DNA of 64,000 nucleotides from an uncultured Candidatus Bathyarchaeia archaeon (GCA_964399235.1 CAYNQC010000002.1:3224-67223); one strand, 5' to 3'; counted from the stretch's first letter, positions 1,525-57,852 are shown. The notes: a model not told the origin generated them from the letters alone. Made by a program: numbers and translations.

Positions 1525-1536
1525 GTCACCCTCCCA

Positions 1537-5162: not shown

Positions 5163-5163
5163 A

Positions 5164-5406
5164 TCACGGTTGCCGATCGCCCATTACCTTAACGGCGCCA
5201 GCCTCGATCGTCTTAACCCATTTCCTGCCAACCCAGATAGCTATCAGTGCCGACACTCCTGTGCCAAACCCCAGATAATCCGGGGGAGTGCCCTTGTAGG
5301 TGGCCCAGACAAAACCGGCTATCAGCGCCATCCAAGGGATAAACACCAGCGTTAGGGTGATGGATAGCAACCCATCAGAATCGCGTAACCGAGGGATCAA
5401 TCTCAT
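5164..5406 (-). CDS. holin candidate (two TM segments)
   Basis: 80 aa, two hydrophobic helices, ATGA overlap with endolysin stop. Confidence 0.55.
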   Translation of the reverse strand: MRLIPRLRDSDGLLSITLTLVFIPWMALIAGFVWATYKGTPPDYLGFGTGVSALIAIWVGRKWVKTIEAGAVKVMGDRQP

Positions 5407-6047: not shown

Positions 6048-6858
6048 CGGTAGGGTTGATATCCAGCAGGCCGCCCAACAGGACGGCATAATTAATGATG
6101 TCAATCAGGGTGTCATAGGCGCTCTCGTCATCAACCTCCAGCCCCGCGCAGTCATTGGCAATGTAGGTCTGCAGGCGGGCGATCTTATCCAGCATCCTGA
6201 TCAGGATCCCTGTCCCCGCAGCAACCCCCAGGAGCTCGGCCGCCCTAAAGTTGCGATAGGGGTCGAAGGTGCCGCCATAGTCCCGGTTCTTTTTAATCAG
6301 CAATCTGCGGGCATTTTTTGCCATTGACCTGTGCCGATCGCGCAGACATTCCCCGGGGGCTTTTACCGGGACCGGAACCATCTCCGGATCCTCTGCCGCC
6401 GTCGTGGCCGCGTCCTCCTTGAGAGTGTTGAGATAGCGCTCCATTTTCGCCAGCATACTCGGATCACTCCAGGTCCAGGGCGGTGGGTCCGCCAAATCCT
6501 GCGCCTCTATGGCTTCCTTGACCGCAGGAGGAGGCTTGGTGGTCCAGACCTTATCCAAGTCGATTTTGGTGCCCGTAAAGAGCTCCGTGGCCTTGCCGTG
6601 CTTGATCTCAGTGTCTGTGATGCCTTGCTTGGGTGATGGCGCAGTTGGCGCTGCCGGCGGCTGATCGTCGATCACGATAGGTGAGCCTAAATTGGGGGTG
6701 ATGTACGGATCGGTAAGCTCTATGCTGGCATCCAGCTCGCCCTGCTTAAACTGTTCTGCGTAGGCGCTGCACTGTGCAACAAAAGCCTCGACCTTGGCCT
6801 TGGCTGCCTCGAGCTTGGCTTGATCCAGTTCGGGTACCTCGGGTTGGCGGTCTGTCAT
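6040..6858 (-). CDS. protein with DUF1599-like helical C-terminal domain
   Basis: Start MTDRQPEV at 6858; C-terminal KKNRDYGGTFDPYRNF...RMLDKIARLQTYI...DTLIDIINYAVL resembles DUF1599 as I recall it. Confidence 0.5.
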   Translation of the reverse strand: MTDRQPEVPELDQAKLEAAKAKVEAFVAQCSAYAEQFKQGELDASIELTDPYITPNLGSPIVIDDQPPAAPTAPSPKQGITDTEIKHGKATELFTGTKIDLDKVWTTKPPPAVKEAIEAQDLADPPPWTWSDPSMLAKMERYLNTLKEDAATTAAEDPEMVPVPVKAPGECLRDRHRSMAKNARRLLIKKNRDYGGTFDPYRNFRAAELLGVAAGTGILIRMLDKIARLQTYIANDCAGLEVDDESAYDTLIDIINYAVLLGGLLDINPTDV

Positions 6859-30004: not shown

Positions 30005-30406
30005 ATGGGTAGACGCTCCCTTGACCTGGCTGGTAAACACTTCCATCGCTGGGTGGTTCTGGAACAGGCGTCCGGCTTACCGGGTTGGTGGCTCTGCTGC
30101 TGTAAGTGTGGGACTGTGAAGACGGTGCTGGGGAGTTCCCTGGTGTATGGCAACAGCAAATCCTGTGGGTGCTTGCAGAAAGAGCTGCAGCGTGTACGGG
30201 CTACTGAGCCTACCAAGCGCAGTCATCTGCTGACCTATCAGGGTAAGACCCAGTCATTGGCGCGCTGGTCGCGTGAGTATAACCTGGCTGCCGACACCAT
30301 CCGCAATCGCCTGAATCGGGGCTGGGATCTGGAGAAGGCCTTGAGCACTCCCTCGCGGGCTGCGCGCTCTCCTGATCTGGTGACGGTCTTCGAGGTTATG
30401 CCGTGA
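30005..30406 (+). CDS. zinc-ribbon plus HTH DNA-binding protein upstream of terminase
   Basis: WWLCCCKCGTVKTV...SKSCGC ribbon; C-terminal QSLARWSREYNLAADTIRNRLNRGWDLEKAL HTH-like. Confidence 0.6.
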   Translation: MGRRSLDLAGKHFHRWVVLEQASGLPGWWLCCCKCGTVKTVLGSSLVYGNSKSCGCLQKELQRVRATEPTKRSHLLTYQGKTQSLARWSREYNLAADTIRNRLNRGWDLEKALSTPSRAARSPDLVTVFEVMP

Positions 30407-33400
30407 TTCCTAACCTGGGTGCCTTGCCCCTCTGTGAGCTGGCCCCGGCGCATCATGCGATCCTGATCGAGCAGGAGCTGTCTCGGCGGGCTGAGAAGAA
30501 AATCCTGGAGCGTGACTTCGCGGCCTTCGCCAAAGCGGCCTGGCACGTAGTAGCCCCGGATCGGGAGCTGGTTTGGAACTGGCACCACGATCTGATCTGC
30601 AACTACCTGGAAGCATTCGCCCTGCGCTACATCCGCAACCTGCAGATCAACATCCCCCCGCGCTGCACCAAGTCCATCCTGTGCGCGGTCCTCTACCCGG
30701 TATGGGTATGGATCAAGCAGCCCAACCATCAGTTCCTGACCTTGAGCTTCAAGGAAGACCTCTCAACCCGCGATGCCGTGGCCTCGAGGAACCTTATGGC
30801 CTCAGAGTGGTTTCAGCGCAGGTGGAGCGATCGCTTCAAGTTCAGCGGGGATACCAACGCCAAGACCAGATACCAAAACGATCATTCCGGGCATCGGATC
30901 TCCTCGGGTATGACCTCTGGCGTGTTGGGTGACGGTGGTGATTGCCTTCCTGGGGAGACCAGGGTGATGACGGAGGTAGGGGAGATTCGTATCGACACCC
31001 TCACCCAGTTGATAGACAAGCCGAGGGTGTTATCCTACAATCATCTGACCGAACAACTCGAATATCGCCCTGTGGTGGCGGCCCGGGAGCTTCCTGCAGA
31101 TGAACTTATCGAATTTAAAACATCCAGCGGTAATACGCTCAGAACTACCCGGCGGCATCGTCTGTACGTCCATAAATCCGGTTACCGGCCAGCGAAGAAT
31201 ATCTGCCTTGGTGAAAGATTCCTCGAACTCGTGCCCGGTATGCCATGGGTCCAAACTCAAGGAGAGCCAGTTCTGCAGCCCCTGTTATCACCAGATGAAG
31301 CGCCAGGAAGTGGAGACGGTGTGCTCGTTATGTGGGACCCCGGTAATCCAGGAACTCTCGGCATTCAGGAAAAAAGTCGAGCGGGATGGGCAGACCGAAT
31401 TCTATTGCTGTGTCGAGCATTCGCGGGCGCATCACGCAGTCAAGAATCGCCGGAAGTGCGCGGTTTGCGGATCCAGGGTAGCGAAGAAAACCAGGAAATA
31501 CTGCTCGACAGCCTGCCGGGAGTCAGCCAGAAAGCCCGCCTTGGAGATTGCCTGCGAAACCTGTGGGAAGCGATTTCATCCGGCGAACTCCAAGGTTCGG
31601 TATTGCTCGCTGGACTGTTCGGCGCTGGCCCACAGCCGGCGTATGCGGGGAGAAGGGAATACCAGATACCAGGATGGGAGATGCGTCCAGAGTGGGTTCC
31701 GTGCGATGCGGCCGGTGATTATGGAGCGGGATGGGCGGGCTTGTGTGGCTTGCAGGACGCAGGAAAACTTGATCGTGCATCACATGGACCGGGACCGGAA
31801 GAACAATCGGGTAGAGAATCTGGTCGTTCTGTGTCAGCCCTGCCACGTCAGGAGGCATCACTGCGCACCTCCGGCGTTCGAGTGGTTGCCAGGGTACGTC
31901 ATGGGGGCGAGCCAGTCTATGACCTCCAGGTTGCAGGAAACAGCAACTTCTTTGCTAACGGAATTCTGTCCCACAACAGCATAATAATCGACGATCCGCA
32001 CGACCCAGAGGGCGCGCAGTCGGATGCTCAGCGGGCGACCACCCTGCGGTCCTACGACGGTCAGCTCATCACGCGCTTGAACGATCGGCGCTCGGGCGGG
32101 ATCCTGATCTTCATGCAGCGGCTGCACGACCACGATCTGTGCGGGCATGTGCTGGCCAGGGAGGGGCAGGCTGATCAGGGCGGGCGCTGGCATCGCCTGG
32201 TAGTACCCATGCGCTACGACCCAGAGCTCAGCCTGTCGACTTACCCTGAAGCCGGCAAGGACCCGCGCACCAAGCCTGGGGAGCTGTTGGATCCGATCCG
32301 TTTCCCAAGAGGGGAAGTAGACTTGCTGGAGACGACCCTGGGGCCTTACAACGTCTCGGGCCAGCACCAGCAGTCCCCATCCCCCCCGGGCGGAGGGATC
32401 CTGAAAACGGCCTGGTGGCAGATGTGGCCCAAGGAGCGCCCGCTGCCCAAATGCAGGGAAATCTTCGCCTCCCTGGATACCGCCTTCACTGAGCGCCATC
32501 ACAAGGAAATGGAGCAGACAGGTCATGCGGCGCGCTCGGCCTGCACGGTCTGGGGGGTGTTCGAGGAGGACAATGGGGCGCCTGGGGTGATGCTGATTGG
32601 GTCCTGGGCTGACTGGATTGATTGGCCGGCCCTGGTGAAAAAGGCCAGGGAGACCTACGATCGCCACGACCCTGACTACATCCTGATCGAGAAAAAGGCC
32701 TCTGGCATATCCCTGCTGCAGGACCTGAAGTACCAGGGCATCCCTGTCGTCGAGTACACGCCGGATGGTGACAAGATTGCCCGCGCCTACGCCTGTCAGT
32801 CCATCCTGTCCTCGGGCTTTGTGTGGTATCCGGATCGTGCCTGGGCGCACGAGGTGGTGGCGGAATGCGCTGCTTTCCCGCGTGGCTCACTGAAGGACTA
32901 TCCCGATACCTGCGTGACTCCGGATACGGAAATCTACTGCGCCGAGGGCGTGAAGCCGATTCGTGACATAGTCCCTGGAGATTGGGTGCTTACTCATGCG
33001 GGTAGATTCAGAAGGGTCACCAGCGTGATGACCAGAACCAGCGACCATATCCACCGCTTCAAGGCTAAGTGCCTGGATGAAATATCGATAACCGGGAACC
33101 ATCCAATGTTTATCCAGAGGGCTGATGGGGTGGGATGGATACCGGTTGCCGAGGTCAAGCCAAGAGAGAAGTTTCAGTTCTATAGAAAAGGCAAGGTAGT
33201 AAGCTGTCCCGTTTACTTGAAGTCGGCCGATTTTGATATGGCTGTGCTGCCGGAAATACGCGGGGCTGACGGGGCTTGGTCAGTGCTTGTTGGTGCCTTC
33301 GCCGAGGAAGAATTGACTGGCTTGCGTGCCGGACGGAAGAAGTGTGAGAAAAAATTTAGTCTGAATTATGACCAGGGATGGTTGTTTGGGTTGTTTCTTG

Positions 33401-34179
33401 CAGAGGGGTGCGTAACCAAGAGCCGGGGTATCCCCAGTAAAATTGTCATCGCCTGTAATGAGGGCGCCATGCTGAAGGCGCAGAGCATCATCAGCAGCAC
33501 TTTTGGGGTTGATGTCAAGATTCGGAATGAAGGGGTTTGCCATAAGCTGGTGATTTGCAGAAAAGCGCTCGTGCCGGTATTTGAAACCTTCGGTCACCTC
33601 GCTGAAAATAAATATATCCCCCGGTGGGTCATGGAGGCCCCCATATCCTTCGTAAAAGGGTTCGTCGAGGGTTACGTAACCGGTGATGGAACTATCGATC
33701 ATGACGCTATACGATGCTCGTCCGCATCGAGATCTCTATTGCTGCAGCTTAGGTTATTGCTGATCAGATTAGGGAAATCGGCAAGCCTTTGCATGGAAAA
33801 GCCGGCCGGGGTGCGCGTCATCAACGGCGCCATGTGTGAGTGTTTGCCGGCGTACTCGATTAATTGGGTGACCAGGGACGATACGACGACGATAGGAAGA
33901 CCGCTGGAGGGCGGCGGTATGGGCTACTGGGTCGAGAGAAATGACAGGATCGAGGGGCCTGTTGAAGTCATGAACCTGTCCGTCGATGAAGACGAATCTT
34001 ACGTAACGACCGGCGGGACTGTGCATAACTGCACGCAGGCGTGGCTGCGAATCAAGAAATCAGGGCTGCTGCGCCGAAAAGTCATCCCCTTCAGGGACCC
34101 TGGACTTGATGACGAGGAGGATGAGCCGGCATTTGTGAAACCCAAGAAATACCGCAGGGTAGTAGGTATTTACGGCTAG
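30403..34179 (+). CDS. terL: terminase large subunit precursor containing two inteins (540 aa after splicing)
   Basis: GTG start in GTGA overlap; extein motifs ...GVLGDGGD/SIIIDDPHD (Walker B-like) and ...KDYPDT/CTQAWL; QRLHDHDL. Confidence 0.85.
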   Translation: MIPNLGALPLCELAPAHHAILIEQELSRRAEKKILERDFAAFAKAAWHVVAPDRELVWNWHHDLICNYLEAFALRYIRNLQINIPPRCTKSILCAVLYPVWVWIKQPNHQFLTLSFKEDLSTRDAVASRNLMASEWFQRRWSDRFKFSGDTNAKTRYQNDHSGHRISSGMTSGVLGDGGDCLPGETRVMTEVGEIRIDTLTQLIDKPRVLSYNHLTEQLEYRPVVAARELPADELIEFKTSSGNTLRTTRRHRLYVHKSGYRPAKNICLGERFLELVPGMPWVQTQGEPVLQPLLSPDEAPGSGDGVLVMWDPGNPGTLGIQEKSRAGWADRILLLCRAFAGASRSQESPEVRGLRIQGSEENQEILLDSLPGVSQKARLGDCLRNLWEAISSGELQGSVLLAGLFGAGPQPAYAGRREYQIPGWEMRPEWVPCDAAGDYGAGWAGLCGLQDAGKLDRASHGPGPEEQSGRESGRSVSALPRQEASLRTSGVRVVARVRHGGEPVYDLQVAGNSNFFANGILSHNSIIIDDPHDPEGAQSDAQRATTLRSYDGQLITRLNDRRSGGILIFMQRLHDHDLCGHVLAREGQADQGGRWHRLVVPMRYDPELSLSTYPEAGKDPRTKPGELLDPIRFPRGEVDLLETTLGPYNVSGQHQQSPSPPGGGILKTAWWQMWPKERPLPKCREIFASLDTAFTERHHKEMEQTGHAARSACTVWGVFEEDNGAPGVMLIGSWADWIDWPALVKKARETYDRHDPDYILIEKKASGISLLQDLKYQGIPVVEYTPDGDKIARAYACQSILSSGFVWYPDRAWAHEVVAECAAFPRGSLKDYPDTCVTPDTEIYCAEGVKPIRDIVPGDWVLTHAGRFRRVTSVMTRTSDHIHRFKAKCLDEISITGNHPMFIQRADGVGWIPVAEVKPREKFQFYRKGKVVSCPVYLKSADFDMAVLPEIRGADGAWSVLVGAFAEEELTGLRAGRKKCEKKFSLNYDQGWLFGLFLAEGCVTKSRGIPSKIVIACNEGAMLKAQSIISSTFGVDVKIRNEGVCHKLVICRKALVPVFETFGHLAENKYIPRWVMEAPISFVKGFVEGYVTGDGTIDHDAIRCSSASRSLLLQLRLLLIRLGKSASLCMEKPAGVRVINGAMCECLPAYSINWVTRDDTTTIGRPLEGGGMGYWVERNDRIEGPVEVMNLSVDEDESYVTTGGTVHNCTQAWLRIKKSGLLRRKVIPFRDPGLDDEEDEPAFVKPKKYRRVVGIYG
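30943..31977 (+). mobile_element. intein 1 (345 codons) at the Walker B-like motif
   Basis: Starts CLPGETRV, block B GNTLRTTRRHRLYV, ends PVYDLQVAGNSNFFANGILSHN followed by S. Confidence 0.8.
31100..31984 (+). CDS. HNH endonuclease ORF in +1 frame nested within intein 1
   Basis: Five CxxC-type pairs, then CVACRTQENLIVHHMDRDRKNNRVENLVVLCQPCHVRRH; GGGAG 10 nt upstream of ATG 31100; stop 7 nt past the intein end. Confidence 0.6.
   Translation: MNLSNLKHPAVIRSELPGGIVCTSINPVTGQRRISALVKDSSNSCPVCHGSKLKESQFCSPCYHQMKRQEVETVCSLCGTPVIQELSAFRKKVERDGQTEFYCCVEHSRAHHAVKNRRKCAVCGSRVAKKTRKYCSTACRESARKPALEIACETCGKRFHPANSKVRYCSLDCSALAHSRRMRGEGNTRYQDGRCVQSGFRAMRPVIMERDGRACVACRTQENLIVHHMDRDRKNNRVENLVVLCQPCHVRRHHCAPPAFEWLPGYVMGASQSMTSRLQETATSLLTEFCPTTA
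32911..34029 (+). mobile_element. intein 2 (373 codons) with LAGLIDADG homing endonuclease domain
   Basis: Starts CVTPDTEIY, block B ITGNHPMF, LAGLIDADG motifs WLFGLFLAEGCV and FVEGYVTGDGTI, ends SYVTTGGTVHN followed by C. Confidence 0.85.
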
Positions 34180-46836: not shown

Positions 46837-46845
46837 GGAGAGGTG

Positions 46846-49800
46846 ATGGCTAATTGGTGGGAAACTCCGCAGCAGCCGGTTCCACTGCCGTCCGCTCAGC
46901 CGGATCTCGGCTCAATGGATTTGGCGCAACTATACAGAGAAGCTTATGGGTTCCGTGATGTGCCCCCTTCTGCTGCGCCCCTCCCCCCTGTCGCGAGCAC
47001 CGAACCAGTACCACCCCAGCCCGGGCTGCTCTCCGATGTAGGTAATCTGCTCAAGCGGGGCTATGCCAGCACCGCCGAGGGCGTCAACTGGCTGGCCGGA
47101 CAAACCCCGGGGCTCAACAATATTCCGGCCTTGGACTGGCAGGGTAACGCTGATTACTGGAAGCAGGTCGCCGATCAGACCACCCAGAAGCTCTCGCTCG
47201 CCCAGCAGGCTGCCGGTGAAAAGAAGTTCTTCAATGAAGATTACACCCCCGGGGAAGCCTGGAAAGACCCTCGTTCCTACCTGGGTGGTGCTGTCGAGTC
47301 GATTCCTGGCACTGTGGTCGGCATGGCTGCTGGTGCGCCGATCGCCGGCATTGTCAATAAGGTCGGGATGGGGCTGCTTACCCGTGGCGCTACGGCGGCG
47401 GCCGAGAAGGCCCTGGCGGGTGGGGCTGAGGCAGCGGCCGTCAAGGCGGCGGGACAGGTCACTAATAAGGCGGCTGGTCGGGTCGCGATGGGGGCTGGCG
47501 CTGTAGGCTATGGTGCTGGTGAAGGAGTTACGGCGGCGGCTACGGATGGGGCGCAGGCGCGTGATCTGGTTATGGGTCGGTCCCCCGAGGAGATGGCTGC
47601 TTCCCCGCTGTATCAGCAGTTGCTGGCAAAAGGACTACCCCCTGACCAGGCCCAGCAGCAGGTAGCCGATACGGTTGCCGAGCAGGTAGCGACTCGGGCC
47701 GGGATCTCGGTGGCCGTCATGGGCGCACCTATGGGCGCCGTCTTTGGTAAGTGGTTCCACTCTGCCGGCGGTGAAAAAATCACCAAATCTCTGCTGGGTG
47801 AGCTGGCAGTGGGTACGCTCGGAGAGGGCGCGCAGGAGTTCCCACAATCTGGTGCTGAGCAGTTTTTTCAGAACCAGGCCATCAAGCAGCATGTCGATCC
47901 CAAGCAGAAGCTCTGGGAAGGGGTGCTTAATGCATCGGTGGCGGGCTCTGTCTCGGGGGCGGTCATGGGTGGCGCCATGGGTGGCTTCCAGGGTATTGGG
48001 GCCAAGGCCGGCGCCGCCAATGCAAGAATCAATGAAGAGCTAAGCAAGGCTGCTTTTGCGAACAATCTGCAATTTGCGACGGCTGATGATCTGCATGCTG
48101 CCATGGCGCACCTGGATACGCTCGGTCAGCAGAAGGATCTGCCTAAAGAGTCAATTGATCGGGTCGCTCAGGCCCGCAGCACCATCCAGGCCGAGATGGC
48201 CCTCAGAGCCACTCCTGAGACGCTGGCACAGCCTCTGCGTGACGACCAGGGCAACGTACAGCCCAGAGCTGAATCCGCCTTCCTGGGGCTCTCAGAGCGT
48301 CCACACGGGCTTAGCGATGACCAGCTAGCCGAAGCCGCCAATCGTCCGCTAGGTGAAGATGCGCCGGCTGAATGGGGGGCCGCCCAGGATCGCTACAAAG
48401 CCGAGATCGCCCATCGGACTGCCCTCAGTAATACCGTCAAGCACTTTACCGATAACCCGGGGGCGGTTGGTGGTGTCAGCTCCAGAATACTAGATATAGT
48501 GTCTGGCAGGCCGCTTACTCCCAAAGGGTATGGGTCTACTGACTTCAACCTGGCCACCCTGTCAGATGATCTGTTGACTCGCTATCGGATGGCGGGTGAA
48601 GTGCTGTTGCGTGACCATCCTGAGACACTTGGCAAGAAGCAAACATCCAAGTTGACCGAGGCGGTAGACCAGCTCCATCAAGAGGCCGATCGCCGCGCTG
48701 CCGGCCAGCAGGGCAACCCCGAGGAGATCAAGGTTAATGAGCAGGTCACCAGCCTCGCTTCCCAGCCTGCTAAGAAATTCAGTGATACCGTTAAAACGCT
48801 CTCTGCAGAGGCGCTCACGCGCGCTGCGAAGATTATTGAGTCACGCCTCCAGCTTGAGCCCGCGCTGGCTCCAAAACTGGAAGAGATCAACGCCAGAGTC
48901 GGGGTCCTACAGGCCCAACAGGCGAGCGTTCAACAAGCAAGTGTCGCTACGCCTGCGCCTGAGAGCGTACAGGGAGCTGCACCGGTCGTTGAGGCTGTCG
49001 CTCCTGCAACCCCTGCCCCCGCGCCTGCGGCGGCTGTCCCGGAGTCTGTCGTGGCCCCGGCGCCCAGCGCCCAGGCAGCCCCAGCGGTAACTGCGCCAGC
49101 ACCATCAGCACCATCAGCGCCATCAGCGCTCGCCCTGCCTGCCCCGGCCACGCCGGTTGCAGTGGAGAGGGTAGCCGCCGGCCTGCCGGTGATCTACTCC
49201 AATAAGGACCGGATCAAAGAGGTCAAGGCCAACCCCAACTACAACGTGATCGCCCTCCCGGATGGGCGCGCCAAGGTGGTTGGTGTGCTGCATCCAAAGA
49301 CTCAACAGTGGATCGGATTTCCCCCTAATGCACCCGTACCAGCCGCGCCTAAAGCCCTACCCGCTCCCGCGCCGACCACTCCCGCTGCTCAACCCGTGGA
49401 GGCAGCTCAGCCGGCTGCGGAAGTTGCCCCGAAGGGTGGTGCTGCAAGTGCTATTCCTAGCGCTCCATCGGTCGAGCCGCCCATCGAGGCGCCAAGCGTA
49501 CCTGTCACTAAACCCAAAAAGGTAACCTCCAATGCCACTAGCATACGTCAAGATCAGAGATTCCCTAGCCAAAGGGGCCAAGAAGGACAGTCCGGCGTAC
49601 AACAAGGCTCAGAGCCGGGCGGCGGCAATTTACGTGTCCAAGGGAAAAAGCAAGTCGCAGCGAAGCAAGTTGGCGAAACAGTTACACGACAAGTAGTTTC
49701 AACGAAGGGCAAATTTGGCCTTCCTAAGTCGTCTCCAGATGGTGTCGCCGCAAACGCCAAGCTGCTTCCCCACGGCGCGAACCGACAAGCCACTCTCGTA

Positions 49801-52800
49801 AAGGGCTTTGATAGTCTCAATAGGAATCGGCAGCGTGCGGTGCTCGGCCATGTGATCAGCGTGCTTCAAGATGACGAGGTTGCACGGTCTGTTGTCAAGA
49901 CCATCCCCGTTGATGTGATGGACATGCTCACTGGAAAGGATGGGTCTTCCGAGGAGGTTTTGCATAACCCATCGATGCTCCGTAATGCTCTTATTGTCCC
50001 GCTTGATGCGTCTATACCTGCTGGTGTGAGCAGATTTATCGAGTCTATAGCCGGTAGGGCGGCATCGGCCAGCACAAGTCCTGCTGCAGTAAAAGCCAGC
50101 TTGACGAACAAGACGGCCGGCAGCGAACTTTCTGGTAAAAACGGTCCCACAAAAGTCGCAAGCAAGGGTAATGGTAGCCAAGGGGTGGGCTCCGAAAGCA
50201 GTAAGAAGCAAGAGAGTATACGCGGACAACGCCAGTCAAAACAAGCAGCCAAGTCGGTCACCCCGCTGCAAAGCACGGCCACGATGGCTAGGCATGCAGC
50301 CTACAAGACGCTTGGCATCAACTGGAATAAGACCCACGAGGTCGTCAAGCAAGATCAAGACTGGGCAGTCGTCGAGAAACCTACAGTTGCCAAAGAAGAG
50401 GGACCGCTGGCTGCCCCCAATCTTGACCTGTTTGCAGAGCCAAATCCCGACCAGTTCGATCTGTTTTCTGACGCTGAGCCCACCAACGACCCCAAGCTGC
50501 AGAAGGCCCAGGATGGGGCTAGGAAGGCGGTGGAGGCACTGCGGACTCAGCGAGGCTCGATACTTGGGAATGCGATCGCCAAGGACTTCGAGGATCACAG
50601 CATCACGTCATTGATAGGCAAGAAGATCCGGTCAGCCAAGGATTTGGCGGTGCTGGCGCAGGTCTATCGCAATCCCAGCTTTGAGACCTTCAGGTACTTC
50701 TTCACCAAAGGTAATGCTGTGGTAGCCCAAACTGCCACCACCGCTCGGCTGCCAGGCTGTACCCCAATCTTCACGGGCCACGATACGACGTGGGGAGACG
50801 GACTGGAGCAGCTCAAGCGGATGATGGCCGAGTCAGGTGCTGATGGGTATTACATCCTCCACAACCACCCCTCTGGGTCGCCAGAGCCTTCCGCAGCCGA
50901 TGTTCAGGTGACCAAGGGTCTGGCCGCCATGCTGCCCGGGTTTAAGGGTCATGTCGTTATCGATCAGACCAAGTATGGATTGATGCGCGCGAATGGCAGT
51001 CAGTTGGTGGCCGACCTTCCAGAGAAGGCACTTCAGGACGATACCCGCTATAACGTCGACCGCCAGTACACACGGCCGCATTTTGCGCTCGGTGCAAGGA
51101 TTAATTCGTCAGCAGATGTCGCGGCGACCGCCAGTGCTCTGCGGTATAACTCCGGCAGTGGGTACTTCCAATTGGTTGGGACCAACAGACATGGTGTGCG
51201 TGGCATCATGGAGGTCCCCATAGAGGCGCTCAAGGGCTACCGCCAAACAAAAACCGGAAGCTTGCGGATAGTTGCGGAGGTGAGGAGATTCGCCAGAACT
51301 ACTGGCAGTGTTGACATATTCGCTATCAACCTCCCCGGAAACATCGGTCGCATGAGCGTGCTGGGGGCGATCAAGTCAGGCCTGTTTAAAGATGTCCATT
51401 TTGCCGGGGACACCAACACCATCAGGGAAACGACGATAGTTGGTACGACGCCGGGGGCCGAAATGGGCAGAATTGGCTCTCGCGGGATCGGGGCTTCAGA
51501 AAGCCAAGCATCCCCTTATGTGGAAACCAAACTGGCCGAGTCTGAGCCGATCGTCCCCAAGGGGATGGCCGGTCTGCAAAATGCTGCCAGCATCAGCGCC
51601 ATCAACCATCTCGCCAAGGCCAGGAAGTTTGACAGCAACCTAGAGCTGAAGGATGTCATCGAGGATCGAGTAACTGCGGCGGCGGCCAGGCTGAAGGACT
51701 TCAACCTGCGGGCCAAGACCCTTGGGCAGCGCGAGAAGAGCTACCTGTCGACCCAGTTATACAACGAGATGCGCCAGGGTCTGCTGAGCGGGAGTGATGC
51801 GCTGGGATGGTATGAGGGAAAGGTGCATGGGGCCTTTGAATACCTGGCGCTCAAGCATCCCGAACTGAAGTTTCTTGACAAAGACCATGGCGGTATGGAG
51901 CAGGTTCGCAGGAATCGCTTTGCCTACACCTACATCCTGGCGATGACCTCCAACGGGACCAAGGTCGAGAAGAACGCCGAAAACGCCCAGAGACTCTACA
52001 CCAGATTCCTAGAGAATGGCCATTTGCCAACGACAGGATTTGGTAGCGGTACGGCCGCCACGAACATCGAAAAATCGGCAGAACTGTTCAATGAGCTGGC
52101 TGATCGATTTGGGATAGACCGGTTTGGTCGGATGATGATGACCCAGTTCAAGGTGATCGATCTGAGCAACGCCGGTATCAAGACCAGCGGTGAGACTTCC
52201 GATCAGGACGTGCTTGGCGCGTTGGTGTTGGGGCCGAAGCTGGGCAATGGGTTCTTTGCCAATCTGAACGGAATCTTCGATCAGCTCACCATGGATCGCT
52301 GGTTCATGCGTACCTGGGGGCGGCTGATCGGGCACCTGCGCGAGGTTTATCCGGAAAGGGTTAATACTCATCGCGCAAGTGTGCGAGATATCATAAATAA
52401 CTTAACAAATGAAGTCAGGGATGTTATAGTTGATCATCTGACCCGTCCGGGCTCCCGTCAGGCAACCAAGGATAAGGCCAAGCTACTGACGGCGGCGATG
52501 GCGCCCGGCGCGACCGATGAGGATATCGATGCCTTGGCTTGGATGGTCAAGGGGCTGACGGTTAGTGATCAGTTCAGGGACATACTAAATCCGGCCGGAA
52601 ATGGGCAGGGCAGTGAGCTGCGGCTGGCGACCAACTCCCTGACGACCAATCTGATGGGTGATATCGAGGCGCCCACTAGGACCCAGCGGCCCCAGATCCG
52701 CGAGGTGATGACCGAGGCCATCCGCCTATTGGGGGAGCATACCGGGGTCAATCTGACCGCCGCCGACGCACAGGCCCTGCTCTGGTATCCAGAGAAGCTT

Positions 52801-55800
52801 CTGTATGACAAGGCGAAGCTGGCGGCCGGTCAGGAGAAGACATATGCAGCAGATGACCTGCCCGACTATGAAAACATCGCCCGGCAGCTTGTCGCAACTT
52901 TAGGAGTGCCACAACATGAAATCGATGCAGTCACCAGCCGACTTGCCGGAGAGCGAGCAACGCCTGACGCCGGACGATCAGCAGGAGCTGTTCTACCAGG
53001 GCCTGGAGGGGAAGGACTTCAAGCAGATAGCGGCCAACTTAGATACGCTGGTTTCAACGAAGGAGAGAGGCGAGAGTTCCTCCGGCAAGAAACCCTCCGC
53101 ACTCTCCATACCGGACCTGCTTTTGGAGGGGATAATACGGGATTACCCGGGTCTTTCAAGGGAGGAAGCCCAGGCAGTCTTAGATATGAGTTAGGCGGGA
53201 CGTCTTACGACGTCGTCACCACGCAGACATTCAACCCATCTCAGCTAGTCACCCATCGGTTTGGCAGGGCTGCCATCACCCCGTTGAAGATAGCTGAGGT
53301 GGATACTGCTGATGCAAAGTCAGTAGAGGCATTCCATGCGGCTGTCGCAGATGCCAAAGCCAACACCCTATATGGGGCCGCTGTTGAGCCAAAATCGATT
53401 GCCCAGTTGAGTGGCCAGGAGGATGGCTATCAGGGCATCCGGCTGTTCATGACCAAGGATGGGAAATCGGGGTTTGCCATCAAAAAGAATGGCGATATCG
53501 TCTCCGTCTTCTCGCAGTCCAGGGAGGGGGTCCAATTCACCACCGGTAGCATGCTCATGCTGGCCATCCAAGAAGGTGGCCGCAAGCTGGATGCTTATGA
53601 CATCGGACTTCCCAGACTCTACTCCGTGCACGGGATGAAGGAAGTCGCCAGGACTCCTTTCAATGAGCAGTATGCCCCGGAAGACTGGGACTATGAAGTT
53701 TTTAAGAAATTCAACAACGGTCGTCCAGACATCGTCTTTATGGTCTTCGACCCAGATCGTGCGCACTTCGCCATCTATGGTGACGGCGCCCCCAGGGCCG
53801 CTCCAGTCCCCGAGTACGACGATGGTGTAAATATCCAGCAGGCTGCCATCGAGTCTCTGCGTGCCCAGCGTCAAACCGCCAATGCTCAAGCTGGCATAAC
53901 GCCCAGGCTCCGCTACTCCAAGTCTGCTGGTGGTGTTGGTGTTTCCATCCAAGAGGCCCGTGCTCAGCTCATTAACGCCATTGGGGCTGCGCAGGTCCAG
54001 GCTCTGGAGAAGGCTGGCCGGCTGGTGTTCCACGAGTCTGATCCCACCGGTATGGGTGGTGCTGGCTATGTGGACAGCAAGGGCGTCATTCACCTGATCC
54101 CCGCCAACATGGACTCCACAGCCCTCGACGTCGCGCTGCATGAGGCTGTGCATGTCGGCAAGGACGATCGGTTCTTTGAAGGTAGCCGCGCCCAGATCCA
54201 GCTTGCTCATGCCACGTTGAGCCTGGTGGGGCTGAAAAACTTCATCGGGGCGCCCAGCTTCAATGATCTGGCCGGGCAGGTCCGGCGGCTGGCTGCGGCA
54301 GGCAATAAAGCGGCTCAAGATGCCCTAGCGAAGGCGACCGAAGTCGATCCCACCAATGTGGACGAGGAGAGTGTCGCTTATTTATCTCAGTACGCCGATG
54401 CCAAGCTCCCCCTGGTCCGCCGTATCCTGGCCGCCATCCGCGCCGTCCTCTATCGCATGGGTGTGAAAATCGAACTGCGACCGGAGGATATTCGAGCCTT
54501 GGCGATGAGCGCCTTGAAGGCCAGGGCCTCGATGACGACCCAGACCCAGAGGGTTGCCCCAGCCTACAGTGAGCCGGGGATAGAGGTGACCGACATCTCA
54601 TGGGAAGAGTTCTCCCGCATCCGCAATGCCTATATGACCGCTCCGAAGACCTCAGAGGGCGCCTTTAAGGCCTGGTTCGGCAAAGGGGTTGAGGGTGTCA
54701 ATGCAATCAATGGCAAGCCTCTCACGCTGTACCACGCTTCTTCTGGCGGGTATACCCAGTGGGATGAGACCAAGGCCGGGCAGGCCAGCGGGCACCCCAC
54801 CAGTGGGCTCGGATTCTTCATGACGGCCGATGCTGGCGCGGCTGCCCGGTATGGCAACAATGTCCAGGAGTTCTACGTCAAGATTAGCAACCCCTACTAC
54901 TTGACCGACGCCGACCTGATGGGCCTCAACTCGGTGGATGATGCCACCAAGCTCAGGAGGCGCCTACAGTCTCAAGGTTATGACGCGGGGGTGGTAACGG
55001 CGCCGGGGGCTGCTCCCTATGTGATCGCCTTCACCAGCAACCAAGTCAAGTTCACTTCCAACACCAATCCCACTGCCAGCCCTGACTTCCGCTATTCGCT
55101 GACAGGTAGGCCTGTCGCCACCGGTCTGACCGGCGATCGCATCCTGGACGAGTTCAACCGCAAGGCCGGCATGTCCGAGCGGGAGAGCACCATCCAAGCC
55201 GTGCAGCGGGTGATGAAGAATCCCGCCCAACGGCAGACCGTCATCCAGAGCATGATCAACCGCTTCATCGAGGGGACCTTCGACGAGACCCATCAGGGCA
55301 AGCTGCACGAGCTGGCGCAGGGCATCGATATTTCCGACCCCTCGGTGAGTGGTAATGCCGCGCAGCGCCTGTCCACGGGCTGGGCCGACACCCTCTACCA
55401 CATCCTGGTCCATGGTGCCCCCATGTGGCGGAATGGAGTCGTGGCCAGGAAGACCATGAAGGGTCTGTTCGATATCCTCAGTCCGGTCTCCGACCCCGAG
55501 CTGATGCGTGAGTGGCTGGGCTGGAGAGCGGCTACTCGTGCTGACCGACTGCTCCGTGAGCGGAATCCCGATGGGACCCCCAAAGAGAAAAACTTCACCC
55601 GGGCCGAGGTAGACCATGTCCTCAATCGTATCAACGCGGACCCCGCCAAGCTCGCAATGTTCGAGTCTGTGGGTGTGGAGTTTAATCAGTTTGAGAGCGA
55701 CATGCTGGACTTGGCCGTGGGGGCTGGACTTGTCGATGCAAGGCTGGCCGCTCAGTGGAAAGCACACGAAGACTATCTGCCCTTCTTCCGTGAAGTAGAG

Positions 55801-57852
55801 GGCAAGATCAAGGGTCCCAAGGGCTCCCGGGGTATCGCCAATCAGGCTGGTTTCAAGAAGCTGTCGGGTGGCCCCGAGGAGCTGAACAACCCCCTGGAGA
55901 ATATCATCCTGGGCGCCGCCAATATCCTCCGCCGGTCAATGGCGAATAAGGCCAGTCAGCTCTATCGCAACAACCTCCAGCCCACCGGCATTCTGGAGAA
56001 GATCCCGCCTGCCTTCAAGCAGGTGATCGTGCCGGCTGGGCAGATCAAATCCTTCCTGAAGAACAATCCAGACTTCGATGCGTGGTTGACTTCCATTGGC
56101 CAGAATGCCCGCGCCATGCCGACAGCGACCTTCCAGGGCCTGCTGAAGATGTGGTCCATGCAGGCCCCCACAGACCCTGATGTGATCCGGATCATGGACA
56201 ATGGCCAGGCCAACTACTACCGGGTGCATGACCAGGGGCTGCTGCGGGCGCTTGCCGGGGCTGAGCGAGTCAACCTTGGCGGGATCCTGAAGCCGCTGGT
56301 GTTCTTCAAGCAGTTGCTGACCTCGGCGGTGACCAGCACCCCGGAGTTCATCGCCCGTAACTGGATCCGTGATGCCGTCCACAACTGGACCATCAACCCC
56401 GATATGGGCATCACCCATCTGATGAGTGGCACCAAGGCTGCTTTGCAGAATAACGGGCATGCGATCGATATGGGGTTTGCCGGGGCGGCCTTTGGCGGCG
56501 GTGGGTACGTCAATGCCAACGAGCCTGGCACCATGGATAGGATGATCAAGCGAGCCCAGCAGGCAACCGGCACCACCTCGGCCAGCGGCGCTGCCAGCAC
56601 CCTGTTCGACTGGACCTCGCGAGCCTGGGGTCAGTACATGGAGATCAATCACCGGTTTGAGAATGCCGGCCGTGAAGCTCGCTATGAGCAGGTGTTGGCG
56701 GCGACCGGGTTGACGGGCAGGGCAGCCTTCGAGGCCAAGGACGTCCTAGACTTCTCCATGCGCGGCAACTTCAAGTCCATGCAGATCCTGACGGCGGTAC
56801 TGCCCTTCTTTAATGCCAGGCTCCAGGGGCTGTACAAGCTGGGTCGGGCCGGGGCGCTGCCTTACAATCGGAAAACGCTGCTTTCAAAAGTGGTGATGCG
56901 CGGGGCGATGATCGCCATGGCGTCGGCCATGCTGCTGGCGGCCAACAAGGATGACCCGCGCTACCAGGCTCTGAATGACTGGGAGAAGGATAACTACTGG
57001 TGGTTCTTCTTCCCGAAGGGGTTCCCGATCGAGCGGATCCACATGCCCAAGCCCTTCGAGGTCGGGTTCATCTATGGGACCCTGATTGGTGAGCGGCTGC
57101 CGCAGAAGATCATGGGCAACGATAACTGGAAGAAGCTTGGTTCTCGCTTCCTGCGTGGCACCTACGATCAGTTGGCCTTCGACCCCATCCCGCAGGCATT
57201 CCGGCCGACCTTTGATGTCGTCAAGAATCGGGTCAGCTTCACGGGCGCGCCCATCGAGGACTTCAGTGACGAGGGTTTGCTCAAGGCAGCTCGGTACAAC
57301 GAGTCCACCTCGAAGACTATGAGGTTGATTGGGGAAGGAGTCTCCGACACCATCAATTTGTCACCCAAGCAGCTTGAGGCGCTCTACAGGGGCTACTTCG
57401 GCTCGATGGGCATGTACCTACTGGCGGCTAGTGATGGGGTCGTAAACGCGCTCACAGGCGGTCCTAGGAGTCCTGCGTGGGAGGCTGGGGATGCGCCGCT
57501 GCTGAAGGCGTTCCTGTCGCCGGAGGTGCCGAGGAGCACCCAGCACAAAACCGACATTTATGATTTTCGCAGGGATATCAACGAGATATACAAAACCGTC
57601 ACAACCTATGCGTTGGAGGGTCGGGTCGCGGAGGCTCAGGCGCTCATCGAGAAGAATAAGGCCAAGCTTGACCAGCGCCCAGTTCTTAACTCGGCCGCCA
57701 AGATGCTGACCACGGTTAGGAAATCGATGGATGTTGTGCTGAGGGATCCAGACAAGAGTTCGGCTGAAAAACGTATAGAACTCAATAGATTACAAGAGAG
57801 GGCAAACACGATTGCCGAGGTGACAGCCAAGATGGTTCGGGTGGCGTGGTGA
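46846..57852 (+). CDS. giant polyvalent virion protein (3668 aa)
   Basis: ATG 46846 5 nt after AAGGAGAGG; Gly-zipper hydrophobic N-region, Ala/Pro linkers, RadC-like JAB, HExxH and ART-like domains, long C-terminal region. Confidence 0.8.
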   Translation: MANWWETPQQPVPLPSAQPDLGSMDLAQLYREAYGFRDVPPSAAPLPPVASTEPVPPQPGLLSDVGNLLKRGYASTAEGVNWLAGQTPGLNNIPALDWQGNADYWKQVADQTTQKLSLAQQAAGEKKFFNEDYTPGEAWKDPRSYLGGAVESIPGTVVGMAAGAPIAGIVNKVGMGLLTRGATAAAEKALAGGAEAAAVKAAGQVTNKAAGRVAMGAGAVGYGAGEGVTAAATDGAQARDLVMGRSPEEMAASPLYQQLLAKGLPPDQAQQQVADTVAEQVATRAGISVAVMGAPMGAVFGKWFHSAGGEKITKSLLGELAVGTLGEGAQEFPQSGAEQFFQNQAIKQHVDPKQKLWEGVLNASVAGSVSGAVMGGAMGGFQGIGAKAGAANARINEELSKAAFANNLQFATADDLHAAMAHLDTLGQQKDLPKESIDRVAQARSTIQAEMALRATPETLAQPLRDDQGNVQPRAESAFLGLSERPHGLSDDQLAEAANRPLGEDAPAEWGAAQDRYKAEIAHRTALSNTVKHFTDNPGAVGGVSSRILDIVSGRPLTPKGYGSTDFNLATLSDDLLTRYRMAGEVLLRDHPETLGKKQTSKLTEAVDQLHQEADRRAAGQQGNPEEIKVNEQVTSLASQPAKKFSDTVKTLSAEALTRAAKIIESRLQLEPALAPKLEEINARVGVLQAQQASVQQASVATPAPESVQGAAPVVEAVAPATPAPAPAAAVPESVVAPAPSAQAAPAVTAPAPSAPSAPSALALPAPATPVAVERVAAGLPVIYSNKDRIKEVKANPNYNVIALPDGRAKVVGVLHPKTQQWIGFPPNAPVPAAPKALPAPAPTTPAAQPVEAAQPAAEVAPKGGAASAIPSAPSVEPPIEAPSVPVTKPKKVTSNATSIRQDQRFPSQRGQEGQSGVQQGSEPGGGNLRVQGKKQVAAKQVGETVTRQVVSTKGKFGLPKSSPDGVAANAKLLPHGANRQATLVKGFDSLNRNRQRAVLGHVISVLQDDEVARSVVKTIPVDVMDMLTGKDGSSEEVLHNPSMLRNALIVPLDASIPAGVSRFIESIAGRAASASTSPAAVKASLTNKTAGSELSGKNGPTKVASKGNGSQGVGSESSKKQESIRGQRQSKQAAKSVTPLQSTATMARHAAYKTLGINWNKTHEVVKQDQDWAVVEKPTVAKEEGPLAAPNLDLFAEPNPDQFDLFSDAEPTNDPKLQKAQDGARKAVEALRTQRGSILGNAIAKDFEDHSITSLIGKKIRSAKDLAVLAQVYRNPSFETFRYFFTKGNAVVAQTATTARLPGCTPIFTGHDTTWGDGLEQLKRMMAESGADGYYILHNHPSGSPEPSAADVQVTKGLAAMLPGFKGHVVIDQTKYGLMRANGSQLVADLPEKALQDDTRYNVDRQYTRPHFALGARINSSADVAATASALRYNSGSGYFQLVGTNRHGVRGIMEVPIEALKGYRQTKTGSLRIVAEVRRFARTTGSVDIFAINLPGNIGRMSVLGAIKSGLFKDVHFAGDTNTIRETTIVGTTPGAEMGRIGSRGIGASESQASPYVETKLAESEPIVPKGMAGLQNAASISAINHLAKARKFDSNLELKDVIEDRVTAAAARLKDFNLRAKTLGQREKSYLSTQLYNEMRQGLLSGSDALGWYEGKVHGAFEYLALKHPELKFLDKDHGGMEQVRRNRFAYTYILAMTSNGTKVEKNAENAQRLYTRFLENGHLPTTGFGSGTAATNIEKSAELFNELADRFGIDRFGRMMMTQFKVIDLSNAGIKTSGETSDQDVLGALVLGPKLGNGFFANLNGIFDQLTMDRWFMRTWGRLIGHLREVYPERVNTHRASVRDIINNLTNEVRDVIVDHLTRPGSRQATKDKAKLLTAAMAPGATDEDIDALAWMVKGLTVSDQFRDILNPAGNGQGSELRLATNSLTTNLMGDIEAPTRTQRPQIREVMTEAIRLLGEHTGVNLTAADAQALLWYPEKLLYDKAKLAAGQEKTYAADDLPDYENIARQLVATLGVPQHEIDAVTSRLAGERATPDAGRSAGAVLPGPGGEGLQADSGQLRYAGFNEGERREFLRQETLRTLHTGPAFGGDNTGLPGSFKGGSPGSLRYELGGTSYDVVTTQTFNPSQLVTHRFGRAAITPLKIAEVDTADAKSVEAFHAAVADAKANTLYGAAVEPKSIAQLSGQEDGYQGIRLFMTKDGKSGFAIKKNGDIVSVFSQSREGVQFTTGSMLMLAIQEGGRKLDAYDIGLPRLYSVHGMKEVARTPFNEQYAPEDWDYEVFKKFNNGRPDIVFMVFDPDRAHFAIYGDGAPRAAPVPEYDDGVNIQQAAIESLRAQRQTANAQAGITPRLRYSKSAGGVGVSIQEARAQLINAIGAAQVQALEKAGRLVFHESDPTGMGGAGYVDSKGVIHLIPANMDSTALDVALHEAVHVGKDDRFFEGSRAQIQLAHATLSLVGLKNFIGAPSFNDLAGQVRRLAAAGNKAAQDALAKATEVDPTNVDEESVAYLSQYADAKLPLVRRILAAIRAVLYRMGVKIELRPEDIRALAMSALKARASMTTQTQRVAPAYSEPGIEVTDISWEEFSRIRNAYMTAPKTSEGAFKAWFGKGVEGVNAINGKPLTLYHASSGGYTQWDETKAGQASGHPTSGLGFFMTADAGAAARYGNNVQEFYVKISNPYYLTDADLMGLNSVDDATKLRRRLQSQGYDAGVVTAPGAAPYVIAFTSNQVKFTSNTNPTASPDFRYSLTGRPVATGLTGDRILDEFNRKAGMSERESTIQAVQRVMKNPAQRQTVIQSMINRFIEGTFDETHQGKLHELAQGIDISDPSVSGNAAQRLSTGWADTLYHILVHGAPMWRNGVVARKTMKGLFDILSPVSDPELMREWLGWRAATRADRLLRERNPDGTPKEKNFTRAEVDHVLNRINADPAKLAMFESVGVEFNQFESDMLDLAVGAGLVDARLAAQWKAHEDYLPFFREVEGKIKGPKGSRGIANQAGFKKLSGGPEELNNPLENIILGAANILRRSMANKASQLYRNNLQPTGILEKIPPAFKQVIVPAGQIKSFLKNNPDFDAWLTSIGQNARAMPTATFQGLLKMWSMQAPTDPDVIRIMDNGQANYYRVHDQGLLRALAGAERVNLGGILKPLVFFKQLLTSAVTSTPEFIARNWIRDAVHNWTINPDMGITHLMSGTKAALQNNGHAIDMGFAGAAFGGGGYVNANEPGTMDRMIKRAQQATGTTSASGAASTLFDWTSRAWGQYMEINHRFENAGREARYEQVLAATGLTGRAAFEAKDVLDFSMRGNFKSMQILTAVLPFFNARLQGLYKLGRAGALPYNRKTLLSKVVMRGAMIAMASAMLLAANKDDPRYQALNDWEKDNYWWFFFPKGFPIERIHMPKPFEVGFIYGTLIGERLPQKIMGNDNWKKLGSRFLRGTYDQLAFDPIPQAFRPTFDVVKNRVSFTGAPIEDFSDEGLLKAARYNESTSKTMRLIGEGVSDTINLSPKQLEALYRGYFGSMGMYLLAASDGVVNALTGGPRSPAWEAGDAPLLKAFLSPEVPRSTQHKTDIYDFRRDINEIYKTVTTYALEGRVAEAQALIEKNKAKLDQRPVLNSAAKMLTTVRKSMDVVLRDPDKSSAEKRIELNRLQERANTIAEVTAKMVRVAW
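49699..50229 (-). CDS. HNH homing endonuclease gene, antisense and codon-aligned inside the giant gene
   Basis: CDFCGTVF...YCSRTCA ribbon, EHRWVMQNLLGRPILSSEHVHHINGDGLDNRPCNLVILKHADHMAEH (HNH_3-like), C-terminal HTH SVRAVGKQLGVCGDTIWRRL; no ATG before the ribbon (TTG start only). Confidence 0.6.
   Translation of the reverse strand: MSAYTLLLLTAFGAHPLATITLACDFCGTVFTRKFAAGRLVRQAGFYCSRTCAGRCRPTGYRLDKSAHTSRYRRIKRDNKSITEHRWVMQNLLGRPILSSEHVHHINGDGLDNRPCNLVILKHADHMAEHRTLPIPIETIKALYESGLSVRAVGKQLGVCGDTIWRRLRKAKFALR
50611..50980 (+). other. RadC-like JAB/MPN domain of the giant protein
   Basis: YYILHNHPSGSPEPSAADVQVTKGL (HNHPSG at 50860-50877). Confidence 0.7.
52916..53194 (+). CDS. 92-codon ORF in +1 frame nested in the giant gene
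   Basis: AGGAG 9 nt upstream of ATG; in-frame TAG 5 codons upstream; third positions GC-rich in this frame but not in the giant-gene frame. Confidence 0.45.
   Translation: MKSMQSPADLPESEQRLTPDDQQELFYQGLEGKDFKQIAANLDTLVSTKERGESSSGKKPSALSIPDLLLEGIIRDYPGLSREEAQAVLDMS
54010..54480 (+). other. zincin-like metallopeptidase domain of the giant protein
   Basis: ALDVALHEAVHVGKDD, HEAVH at 54139-54153. Confidence 0.55.
54640..55050 (+). other. ADP-ribosyltransferase-like domain (polyvalent-protein type)
   Basis: FKAWFGKG...GKPLTLYHASS...GLGFFMTADAGAAARYG...VQEFYVKISNP...GYDAGVV...VIAFTSNQVKF. Confidence 0.55.

Follow-up and report, generated by a model that had tools for sequence, protein, structure and literature searches.

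Can a homing endonuclease gene sit inside a protein-coding sequence that is neither spliced nor interrupted? To our knowledge, homing endonucleases have been thought to invade coding sequences only by way of self-splicing introns or inteins. The question is raised by a stretch of 64,000 nucleotides assembled from an uncultured Candidatus Bathyarchaeia archaeon (CAYNQC010000002.1, positions 3224–67223), the whole of which we call the window. One of its genes encodes a giant phage polyvalent protein, and on the opposite strand of that gene, at 49699–50229, lies an open reading frame (ORF) for an HNH endonuclease. A preliminary description made from the sequence alone had taken this ORF for a mobile endonuclease insertion tolerated in frame by the giant gene. 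We reach the same view and consider it probable that 49699–50229 is a homing-endonuclease cassette that was inserted antisense in the polyvalent gene and is read through by the host ribosome, with no splicing. Behind this view there now stand the same arrangement in 24 of 24 copies verified at the DNA level, 394 related protein clusters, and filled and empty alleles of insertion sites.

The preliminary description had read the minus strand as a phage HNH protein with a zinc ribbon and a helix-turn-helix (HTH), and had proposed a profile search as a check. Pfam HNH_3 (PF13392) matches at 32.4 bits, above its gathering score of 24.8 (E = 6.9e-8). PHROG HNH families also match (best 2.9e-15). Among the 67 phage records recovered by tblastn with the window protein is that of Burkholderia phage Bcep22, whose annotated HNH endonuclease is matched at 89% coverage. 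In a 19-sequence alignment the window protein keeps all 12 invariant columns (the catalytic His...Asn...His, EHR, HHxNG, DNR, NL and H), and the 176 codons contain no frameshift or internal stop; we thus see no sign of the decay that had been suspected. As regards the beta-beta-alpha-metal fold of HNH endonucleases, an AlphaFold2 model of the protein, built from an eight-sequence input, reached a pLDDT of 73, with the core above 80, and phmmer against PDB found only an HTH protein. As to the start, the preliminary description had found neither an ATG nor a Shine–Dalgarno sequence. The absence of ATG stands, and only TTG candidates are available, but a GGAG lies 8 nt ahead of the in-frame TTG at 50181 (Table 1). 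The closest relative, at locus L099, likewise uses TTG, with GAGG upstream; together with L098, L096 and the second copy at L095 (L095b), it forms the subclade of the window protein (42–48% identity). Upstream of the HNH ORF, the minus strand also has TTGACT (50234–50239) and TATACT (50215–50220), at a spacing of just 13 nt, a pair that a consensus scan did not call.

The codons of the two genes are aligned, as had been noted: both sets begin at positions congruent to 1 modulo 3, so each minus-strand codon is the exact complement of one plus-strand codon. It had further been claimed that the HNH gene lacks TTA, CTA and TCA, the codons that would read as stops on the other strand, and none of the three occurs in the 176 codons. 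The chance of this is 0.017 given the phage's own usage (2.27% jointly), or 0.006 given the 21 Leu and 9 Ser residues of the protein. The HNH stop codon, TGA at 49701–49699, reads as TCA (Ser) in the sense direction. Leucine codons in the HNH ORF (CTT 10, TTG 5, CTC 5, CTG 1) differ from those in the rest of the phage, where CTG dominates (275 of 659); this fits either a foreign origin or constraint from the sense frame, in which CTT, TTG and CTC become Lys, Gln and Glu. An open antisense frame is in itself unremarkable here, because four other antisense-register stretches of 235–324 codons are open inside the giant gene. We therefore take the HNH ORF as real because of its homology, not because of the openness of the frame, and on the same ground reject a chance ORF. 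GC content at codon positions did not discriminate between the strands. The claim that the DNA is more AT-rich than its flanks was right in direction, but the effect is modest: GC is 0.51–0.56 over the HNH ORF, 0.563 in the window and about 0.59 in the giant gene.

Most direct searches for relatives of the locus were negative. Neither the region nor a 1200-amino-acid piece of the giant protein found a match among 50,697 phage records by megablast and tblastn; exact-protein look-ups returned neither the window HNH nor the giant protein; a scan of IMG/VR with the flank on the RadC side gave no match; and a homologue search with a three-sequence sense alignment gave none either, low-complexity words having probably swamped the query. 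A search with an 800-amino-acid piece of the giant protein returned just two matches, one of which, P0009 (843 amino acids), was similar only in the part that lies opposite the HNH gene (for example, SVVKTIPVDVMDMLTGK against SVVKRIPVDVMNVLSAR). The contig of P0009, L001, proved to carry a 193-amino-acid zinc ribbon–HNH–HTH ORF, antisense and in register within the 843-amino-acid ORF, with GGAG ahead of its ATG. Comparison of the two loci gave 100 bits over 160 amino acids for the HNH proteins and only 69 bits over 87 amino acids for the sense readings. Conserved motifs of the sense reading complement those of the HNH protein exactly, IPVDVM(N/D) pairing with HHING(N/D) and LLHDPSVL with EHRWVMEQ, and for this reason we regard the sense similarity as a shadow of the conserved antisense gene.

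A scan of IMG/VR, metagenomes and genomes for the HNH motif yielded 93 loci. Of these, 92 serve as a control set: their antisense frame ends a short way beyond the HNH gene, and at most 477 codons stay open (at 70% GC). At the remaining locus, L090, an HNH gene preceded by AAAGGAG-N7-ATG is nested in an antisense host ORF of more than 3189 codons. We also built a profile from two sense readings and searched it against 1.84 billion representative proteins (clusters at 50% identity), which returned 394 protein clusters at E ≤ 1e-3, nearly all of them giant proteins (1000–5700 amino acids); 169 of the clusters reach E ≤ 1e-10. The best 150 of these 394 matches have a median length of 2366 amino acids, and 85% exceed 1000 amino acids; the match is internal (relative positions 0.1 to 0.9) and occurs twice in 6 of the 150. 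This census rests on sense-strand similarity. The antisense ORF was confirmed at the DNA level in 24 copies, comprising that of the window and 23 others (L001, L090, two in L095, two in L096, L112, L114, 14 IMG/VR loci and one further site). All 24 have an intact antisense zinc ribbon–HNH–HTH ORF of 160–270 codons, at locus GC contents of 0.43–0.67, and no degraded copy was found among them. In most, an ATG stands directly ahead of the first CxxC, and many have a Shine–Dalgarno-like sequence, relatives showing GGAG or AGGAG 6–8 nt before the ATG. The host proteins of the relatives contain AAA_34, Helicase_C_4, ART-PolyVal, LPD38, InPase, LPD1, LPD39, MuF_C, ddrB-ParB and RadC domains. A tblastn search with a typical sense shadow found no match in cultured-phage genomes, and the antisense arrangement is so far confined to metagenomic contigs. 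When the window HNH was searched against 5.8 billion predicted proteins, only seven weak, partial relatives appeared, despite the hundreds of embedded copies. Apparently the giant ORF is retained in gene calling at the expense of the antisense gene nested in it, which leaves the clade nearly invisible in protein collections.

Individual copies show further variation. L095 (Logan ERR8156862_38301) has two intact antisense cassettes (4831–5463 and 5998–6489, minus strand) in a single host gene of 1296 amino acids, and a third, free-standing HNH_3 gene (1446–1961, plus strand) about 1 kb upstream on the strand of the host gene. At L114 (ENA ERZ25071281 ctg47850), where the cassette lies in the InPase domain of P0103, the zinc ribbon and HNH are followed by three HTH repeats, and a perfect TATAAT stands about 30 nt upstream of an AGGGAGA-N6-TTG start. 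At L112, a TAAAAT is followed after 7 nt by the ATG, a spacing in keeping with a leaderless transcript. The hexamers at L114 and L112 are possible cassette-borne promoters. Several of the IMG/VR loci L099, L100, L102, L105 and L109 span 60–62.5 kb, near the 64 kb of the window, which hints at a shared phage group.

The embedded HNH proteins form a clade of their own, 93 of 95 top-five BLAST neighbours being embedded too. Across 19 embedded ORFs we counted no TTA, CTA or TCA in 3986 codons, against about 99 expected from GC-matched rates in free-standing relatives. The free-standing genes use these codons at 2.0 per 100, and only 9 of 67 have none.

Similarity between host genes is usually limited to the cassette. 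Among the best 150 of the 394 giants we looked for filled and empty alleles, and found them at two sites. At one, an insert of about 205 residues separates flanks in P0058 and P0096 that adjoin each other in P0074; these flanks are 44–47% identical and the gap in P0074 amounts to 3 or −1 residues. At the other, the cassette lies within Pfam InPase, between HYGYI(K/R/L) and GxxGxDxDHxD. This site is filled in P0025, P0103, P0141 and P0064 and empty in P0089, P0108, P0039 and P0021, and the Pfam match is one stretch in P0089 and two in P0025. The empty site of P0089 type reads CAC TAC GGC TAC ATC CTG GGC ACG GTC GGC AAA GAT. In DNA from this site, the HNH stop codon falls 1–2 codons past HYGYIR and the HNH start about 8–13 codons from the second half of the domain; because the ends of the cassette coincide with those of the HNH ORF, the insert is essentially that ORF plus a short leader. 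We rejected the idea of two separate genes with an accidentally open frame, since the frame is kept in all cases and the two halves of a single Pfam domain stay in frame around the cassette. The flanks represent about 100 different contexts, with hot spots inside conserved domains: the C-terminal half of InPase follows 19 of 141 copies, an ART-PolyVal-like domain adjoins 12–14 and a zincin-like HExxH region adjoins 9. Homing endonucleases typically target conserved motifs. L095 carries one copy from each of two subclades. Patchy filled and empty alleles, some 100 contexts, copies of several subclades in one host and cassette-limited similarity are, as read from sequence, signatures of mobility. 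Among the relatives we thus find presence/absence polymorphism at the same site and an element phylogeny decoupled from that of the host gene.

On the reading that we favour, the cassette would amount to about one gene, for a zinc ribbon, an HNH nuclease and an HTH, with a short leader and with its codons in host register. The host ribosome would read straight through it, because it contains no TTA, CTA or TCA and because its own stop reads as Ser; the giant protein would gain about 180 residues instead of being truncated. The HNH protein would be made from an antisense transcript, using GGAG-N8-TTG in the window and GGAG-N7-ATG in most relatives. It would probably cut the same site in co-infecting relatives whose allele has no insert, and the filled allele would then serve as the repair template by which the cassette is copied across (homing). 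The sense reading, itself apparently shaped by selection, would probably fold independently, allowing tolerance even inside the enzymatic domains of relatives. The sequences themselves show the anatomy of the ORF, its homology and recurrence, the clade structure, the depletion of stop-complement codons, the filled and empty alleles, the frame that is selected and the constraint on synonymous sites. We infer antisense expression, the activity and specificity of the nuclease, homing, and the folding and harmlessness of the sense insert.

What does the sense strand contribute? The preliminary description had called this part of the giant protein featureless, which we found not to be the case: it is conserved (mostly as a shadow of the HNH gene), constrained at sites that are synonymous for HNH, and confidently modelled as a helical domain. 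That description had also counted sense-strand conservation as evidence against an inserted HNH gene. Such conservation exists, but the antisense gene explains it. In codon-threaded alignments of the embedded copies, identity is 0.35 in the HNH frame and 0.25 in the sense frame, and nucleotide differences in the HNH frame are most frequent at third, then first, then second codon positions. The HNH gene is therefore the primary coding constraint. Particular HNH-synonymous choices are nevertheless fixed. The Gly of HHxNG is GGG, giving sense Pro, in 17 of 17 embedded genes and 7 of 51 free-standing ones. Similarly, a Glu is GAG (sense Leu) in 17 of 17 compared with 43 of 65, the second His is CAC (sense Val) in 18 of 18 compared with 47 of 66, and a Val is GTY (sense Asp or Asn) in 16 of 16 compared with 36 of 58. 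The sense Pro is present in 154 of 156 sense segments from clusters below 50% identity, and in 8 of 65 shadows of free-standing genes. Shared ancestry does not explain the fixed codons, because adjacent synonymous sites of these sequences are randomised (for example, CAT:CAC at 9:9, and all four Gly codons at another site). Across all sites, identical residues use different codons in 52% of cases among embedded copies and 59% among controls, a small global reduction. These codon choices make a strong sequence-based case for site-specific constraint on the sense frame.

AlphaFold2 modelling of the window sense reading with 21 homologous segments predicted an all-helical domain, with pLDDT values of 84–95 over residues 21–125. 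Foldseek searches of this model in PDB and BFVD returned no known fold, and the sense reading matched no LPD family in Pfam. The model suggests that the complement of the cassette has been shaped into a benign, self-folding insert. We judge the case evenly balanced for the further claim that two proteins under selection are encoded by a single DNA segment, on opposite strands and in a shared codon register: an HNH homing endonuclease and, as its complement, a helical passenger domain that is purpose-shaped and folds autonomously. It may even be that the sense domain has come to serve the polyvalent protein in some way of its own.

Several points weigh against a mobile, read-through cassette at this site. 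Foldseek of the HNH model against PDB gave no match at E < 0.1 and recovered no HNH structure; it returned HTH domains and I-PpoI, both at low probability only, the matches to transposase and resolvase HTHs being non-significant (E > 0.4). Translation of the sense insert and its retention in the mature protein are predictions. The comparison with insert-free orthologues that the preliminary description had proposed produced no close one for the window gene in phage records, IMG/VR or protein searches. It left the borders of this copy unset, empty alleles being seen at the sites of relatives, and its borders and mobility are accordingly judged from those relatives. That all copies checked are intact would also suit a gene that serves the phage instead of being purely selfish. 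An alternative built on this point is that the nuclease has been domesticated as a fixed gene that benefits the phage by degrading host or competitor DNA or by interfering with co-infection, its nesting serving regulation or linkage. Catalytic residues are conserved in every copy examined, the host is always a conflict-devoted polyvalent protein, and one published study reports that an intron-encoded phage endonuclease can confer a competitive advantage (PMC11620839). A fixed gene would, however, fit poorly with the patchy filled and empty alleles at homologous sites, the range of flanking contexts, the multiple copies of different subclades in single hosts and the restriction of host similarity to the cassette. 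We think domestication improbable as the main account, although it and a mobile cassette are not mutually exclusive.

We assign a similarly low probability to the window copy being an inactive relic that arrived by homing and is no longer expressed, kept open by selection on the giant frame alone. Its lack of an ATG, the absence of any sigma-70-like promoter on the minus strand in a consensus promoter/terminator scan, and the fact that antisense-register ORFs of such length arise by chance in the giant gene would all suit a relic, and the first two also count against an active cassette. A relic would be less expected to keep 176 open codons and 12 of 12 family-invariant residues, or to retain the GGAG ahead of its TTG when its closest relative starts in the same way, and the DNA-level copies include no degraded one. 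Far less probable still is removal of the segment as an intein or as a group I or group II intron with an antisense ORF, which would make the open sense frame irrelevant. Homing endonuclease genes do normally travel in introns or inteins, and this phage probably carries inteins in its terminase gene. Rfam models nevertheless gave no match in 48800–51200 at E ≤ 1, although very divergent introns could escape them; no Hint or intein Pfam domain was found on either strand; and the junctions (HYGYIRS... and ...PKG) lack intein splice-site residues. Splicing of an intron would make no demand on the host frame. In every case, however, that frame is open, and stop-complement codons are absent where about 99 were expected, which makes read-through the simplest reading. 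The least credible proposal is that only the sense strand functions, as a conserved polyvalent-protein domain of which the HNH likeness is a by-product. Its conservation in 394 clusters, predicted fold and constraints at HNH-synonymous sites would agree with this. By contrast, the minus strand matches a curated family of free-standing genes, every copy has an unbroken antisense ORF with start signals, identity and the distribution of differences favour the HNH frame, and the conserved sense motifs exactly complement HNH motifs (IPVDVM and HHINGN, LLHDPSVL and EHRWVMEQ).

A hidden HNH cassette that is read through has its closest precedent in the ShiLan domain (Arsenault, Gosselin and Gogarten 2025, PMC11855218), an unspliced insertion in mycobacteriophage DNA methylase genes that leaves the host frame open and encodes its HNH in a shifted one. 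ShiLan and the window cassette are both HNH homing cassettes inside a host ORF that create no stops in the host frame and have no intron or intein features, and in both the host is thought to be read through. Like the cassettes of the window's relatives, ShiLan comprises little beyond the HNH ORF, which starts a few codons inside one boundary of the insert and terminates right at the other. The two HNH proteins are homologous (37% identity, E = 1e-15), but ShiLan falls outside the embedded clade and has a zinc ribbon–HNH–zinc ribbon architecture, in contrast to zinc ribbon–HNH–HTH here. The ShiLan HNH also lies on the same strand as its host at an offset of 2, a geometry that we confirmed, whereas in the window the two genes run on opposite strands with their codons in exact register; the hosts are a DNA methylase there and giant polyvalent proteins here. 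The ShiLan paper mentions no antisense or polyvalent cases, and a full-text literature search found no description of the antisense codon-register arrangement. What was known already is thus the hidden read-through HNH homing cassette; new here are the orientation and exact register, the host class, the abundance and the evidence for selection on both strands.

Other mobile endonucleases share parts of this arrangement. Inteins with homing endonucleases are likewise inserted in frame, translated with the host protein, often placed at conserved active-site regions and spread by homing; unlike them, the cassette has no Hint or splicing domain and no splice-junction residues, its endonuclease is encoded on the other strand and not in the host polypeptide, and the insert is presumably retained. 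The T4 seg and mob genes, and mobE, which splits nrdA in Aeromonas phage Aeh1, are reportedly free-standing phage homing endonucleases. Those of HNH type resemble the cassette in lacking an intron or intein and in invading or bordering conserved phage genes, but they lie between genes or split the host gene in two, whereas the host ORF here is continuous. Group I introns of eukaryotic nuclear rDNA can hold antisense-oriented homing endonuclease genes. There, too, the endonuclease gene runs opposite to the host gene, but those introns are spliced and sit in RNA genes with no frame to keep, and no intron model matches here.

The window cassette is an antisense, codon-registered counterpart of ShiLan, which stands as one unspliced, same-strand read-through exception to the expectation from introns and inteins. 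It belongs to a lineage and is no isolated curiosity: it extends to at least 394 clusters at 50% identity, mostly of giant polyvalent proteins and often amid conserved enzymatic domains. The copies provide a natural and abundant case of long bidirectional coding (160–270 codons), with clear selection on one strand and measurable signs of selection on the other. They also expose a blind spot in annotation, since the HNH genes are almost missing from protein databases and their sense shadow could pass for a domain of unknown function. Filled and empty alleles define target sites for new site-specific nucleases, and the sense reading offers a possible insertion-tolerant protein module. The pattern suggests that gene conversion driven by endonucleases helps to shuffle the modules of polyvalent proteins. 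If the proposal is true, a passenger domain would add a third way into coding sequence to those provided by introns and inteins, one that needs no splicing; the element would live inside essential enzymatic domains of giant phage proteins, and gene callers would systematically miss a large clade.

Table 1. Positions of the HNH cassette and of the giant gene that contains it, in window coordinates unless amino acids (aa) are given
Feature	Position	Strand	Details
Maximal HNH ORF	49699..50229	-	176 codons from TTG 50229; in codon register with host ORF; stop TGA 49701-49699
Probable coding sequence	49699..50181	-	160 aa from TTG 50181-50179, begins MATITLACDFCG; relatives start just before first CxxC
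Shine–Dalgarno-like GGAG	50190..50193	-	8 nt upstream of in-frame TTG at 50181
Zinc ribbon	50074..50160	-	CDFC ... CSRTC
HNH_3 catalytic core	49846..49977	-	EHRWVMQNLLGRPILSSEHVHHINGDGLDNRPCNLVILKHADH; Pfam, residues 85-128; all invariant columns present
C-terminal HTH	49720..49818	-	HTH_38 and HTH_50, both below Pfam cut-offs; three helices in AlphaFold2 model
Sense reading of cassette	49759..50073	+	giant protein aa about 973-1077; predicted compact all-helical; has IPVDVMD, complement of HHINGD
Predicted peptide of sense insert		+	TIPVDVMDMLTGK
Upper bound of inserted segment	49639..50493		giant protein aa 933-1217; widest similarity to other cassette-bearing giants
Host ORF	46843..57852	+	3669 aa; phage polyvalent protein; ORF listing and Pfam
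Ala/Pro-rich linkers upstream of insert	about 48946-49168 and 49324-49522 (within 48946..49522)	+	
RadC-like domain region, downstream of insert	50575..51336	+	homologous to P0008, 33% identity over 257 aa
RadC-like JAB domain	giant protein aa 1326-1364		Pfam
ART-PolyVal domain	giant protein aa 2623-2744		Pfam
LPD38 domain	giant protein aa 3371-3554		Pfam

The insert in the window lies between the Ala/Pro-rich linkers and the RadC-like region, outside any recognised domain, and homology of the RadC-type flank to P0030 resumes at residue 1182 of the giant protein (nucleotide 50386). With LPD38, ART-PolyVal and RadC-like domains in a single ORF, the host gene belongs among the polyvalent proteins (Iyer et al. 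2017, PMC5512222). In a term search of that survey, neither 'homing' nor 'opposite strand' occurs and HNH has one unrelated mention, and nothing there suggests that the survey describes embedded endonuclease genes. The giant gene is downstream of terminase, portal and head genes. Iyer and colleagues reportedly proposed that polyvalent proteins are packaged in the virion and delivered into the host, and from this proposal and the position of the gene after the head genes, the giant protein may be packaged and delivered in the same way. Three further long ORFs in antisense register in this gene (53368–54318, 54964–55767 and 55936–56652, minus strand; 238–316 amino acids) look like ordinary shadow ORFs of a GC-rich gene; Pfam gave no match for them, the three ORFs of at least 150 amino acids among the four other antisense-register stretches.

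Elsewhere in the window, the large terminase ORF (30403–34179, plus strand; 1258 amino acids) has its terminase homology split in two stretches and matches Intein_splicing (residues 202–525), Hint_2 (836–883) and LAGLIDADG_3 (about 1083–1135). These matches and the split homology indicate that it probably carries two inteins, one of them with a LAGLIDADG endonuclease. The phage of the window is host to several kinds of mobile endonuclease element.

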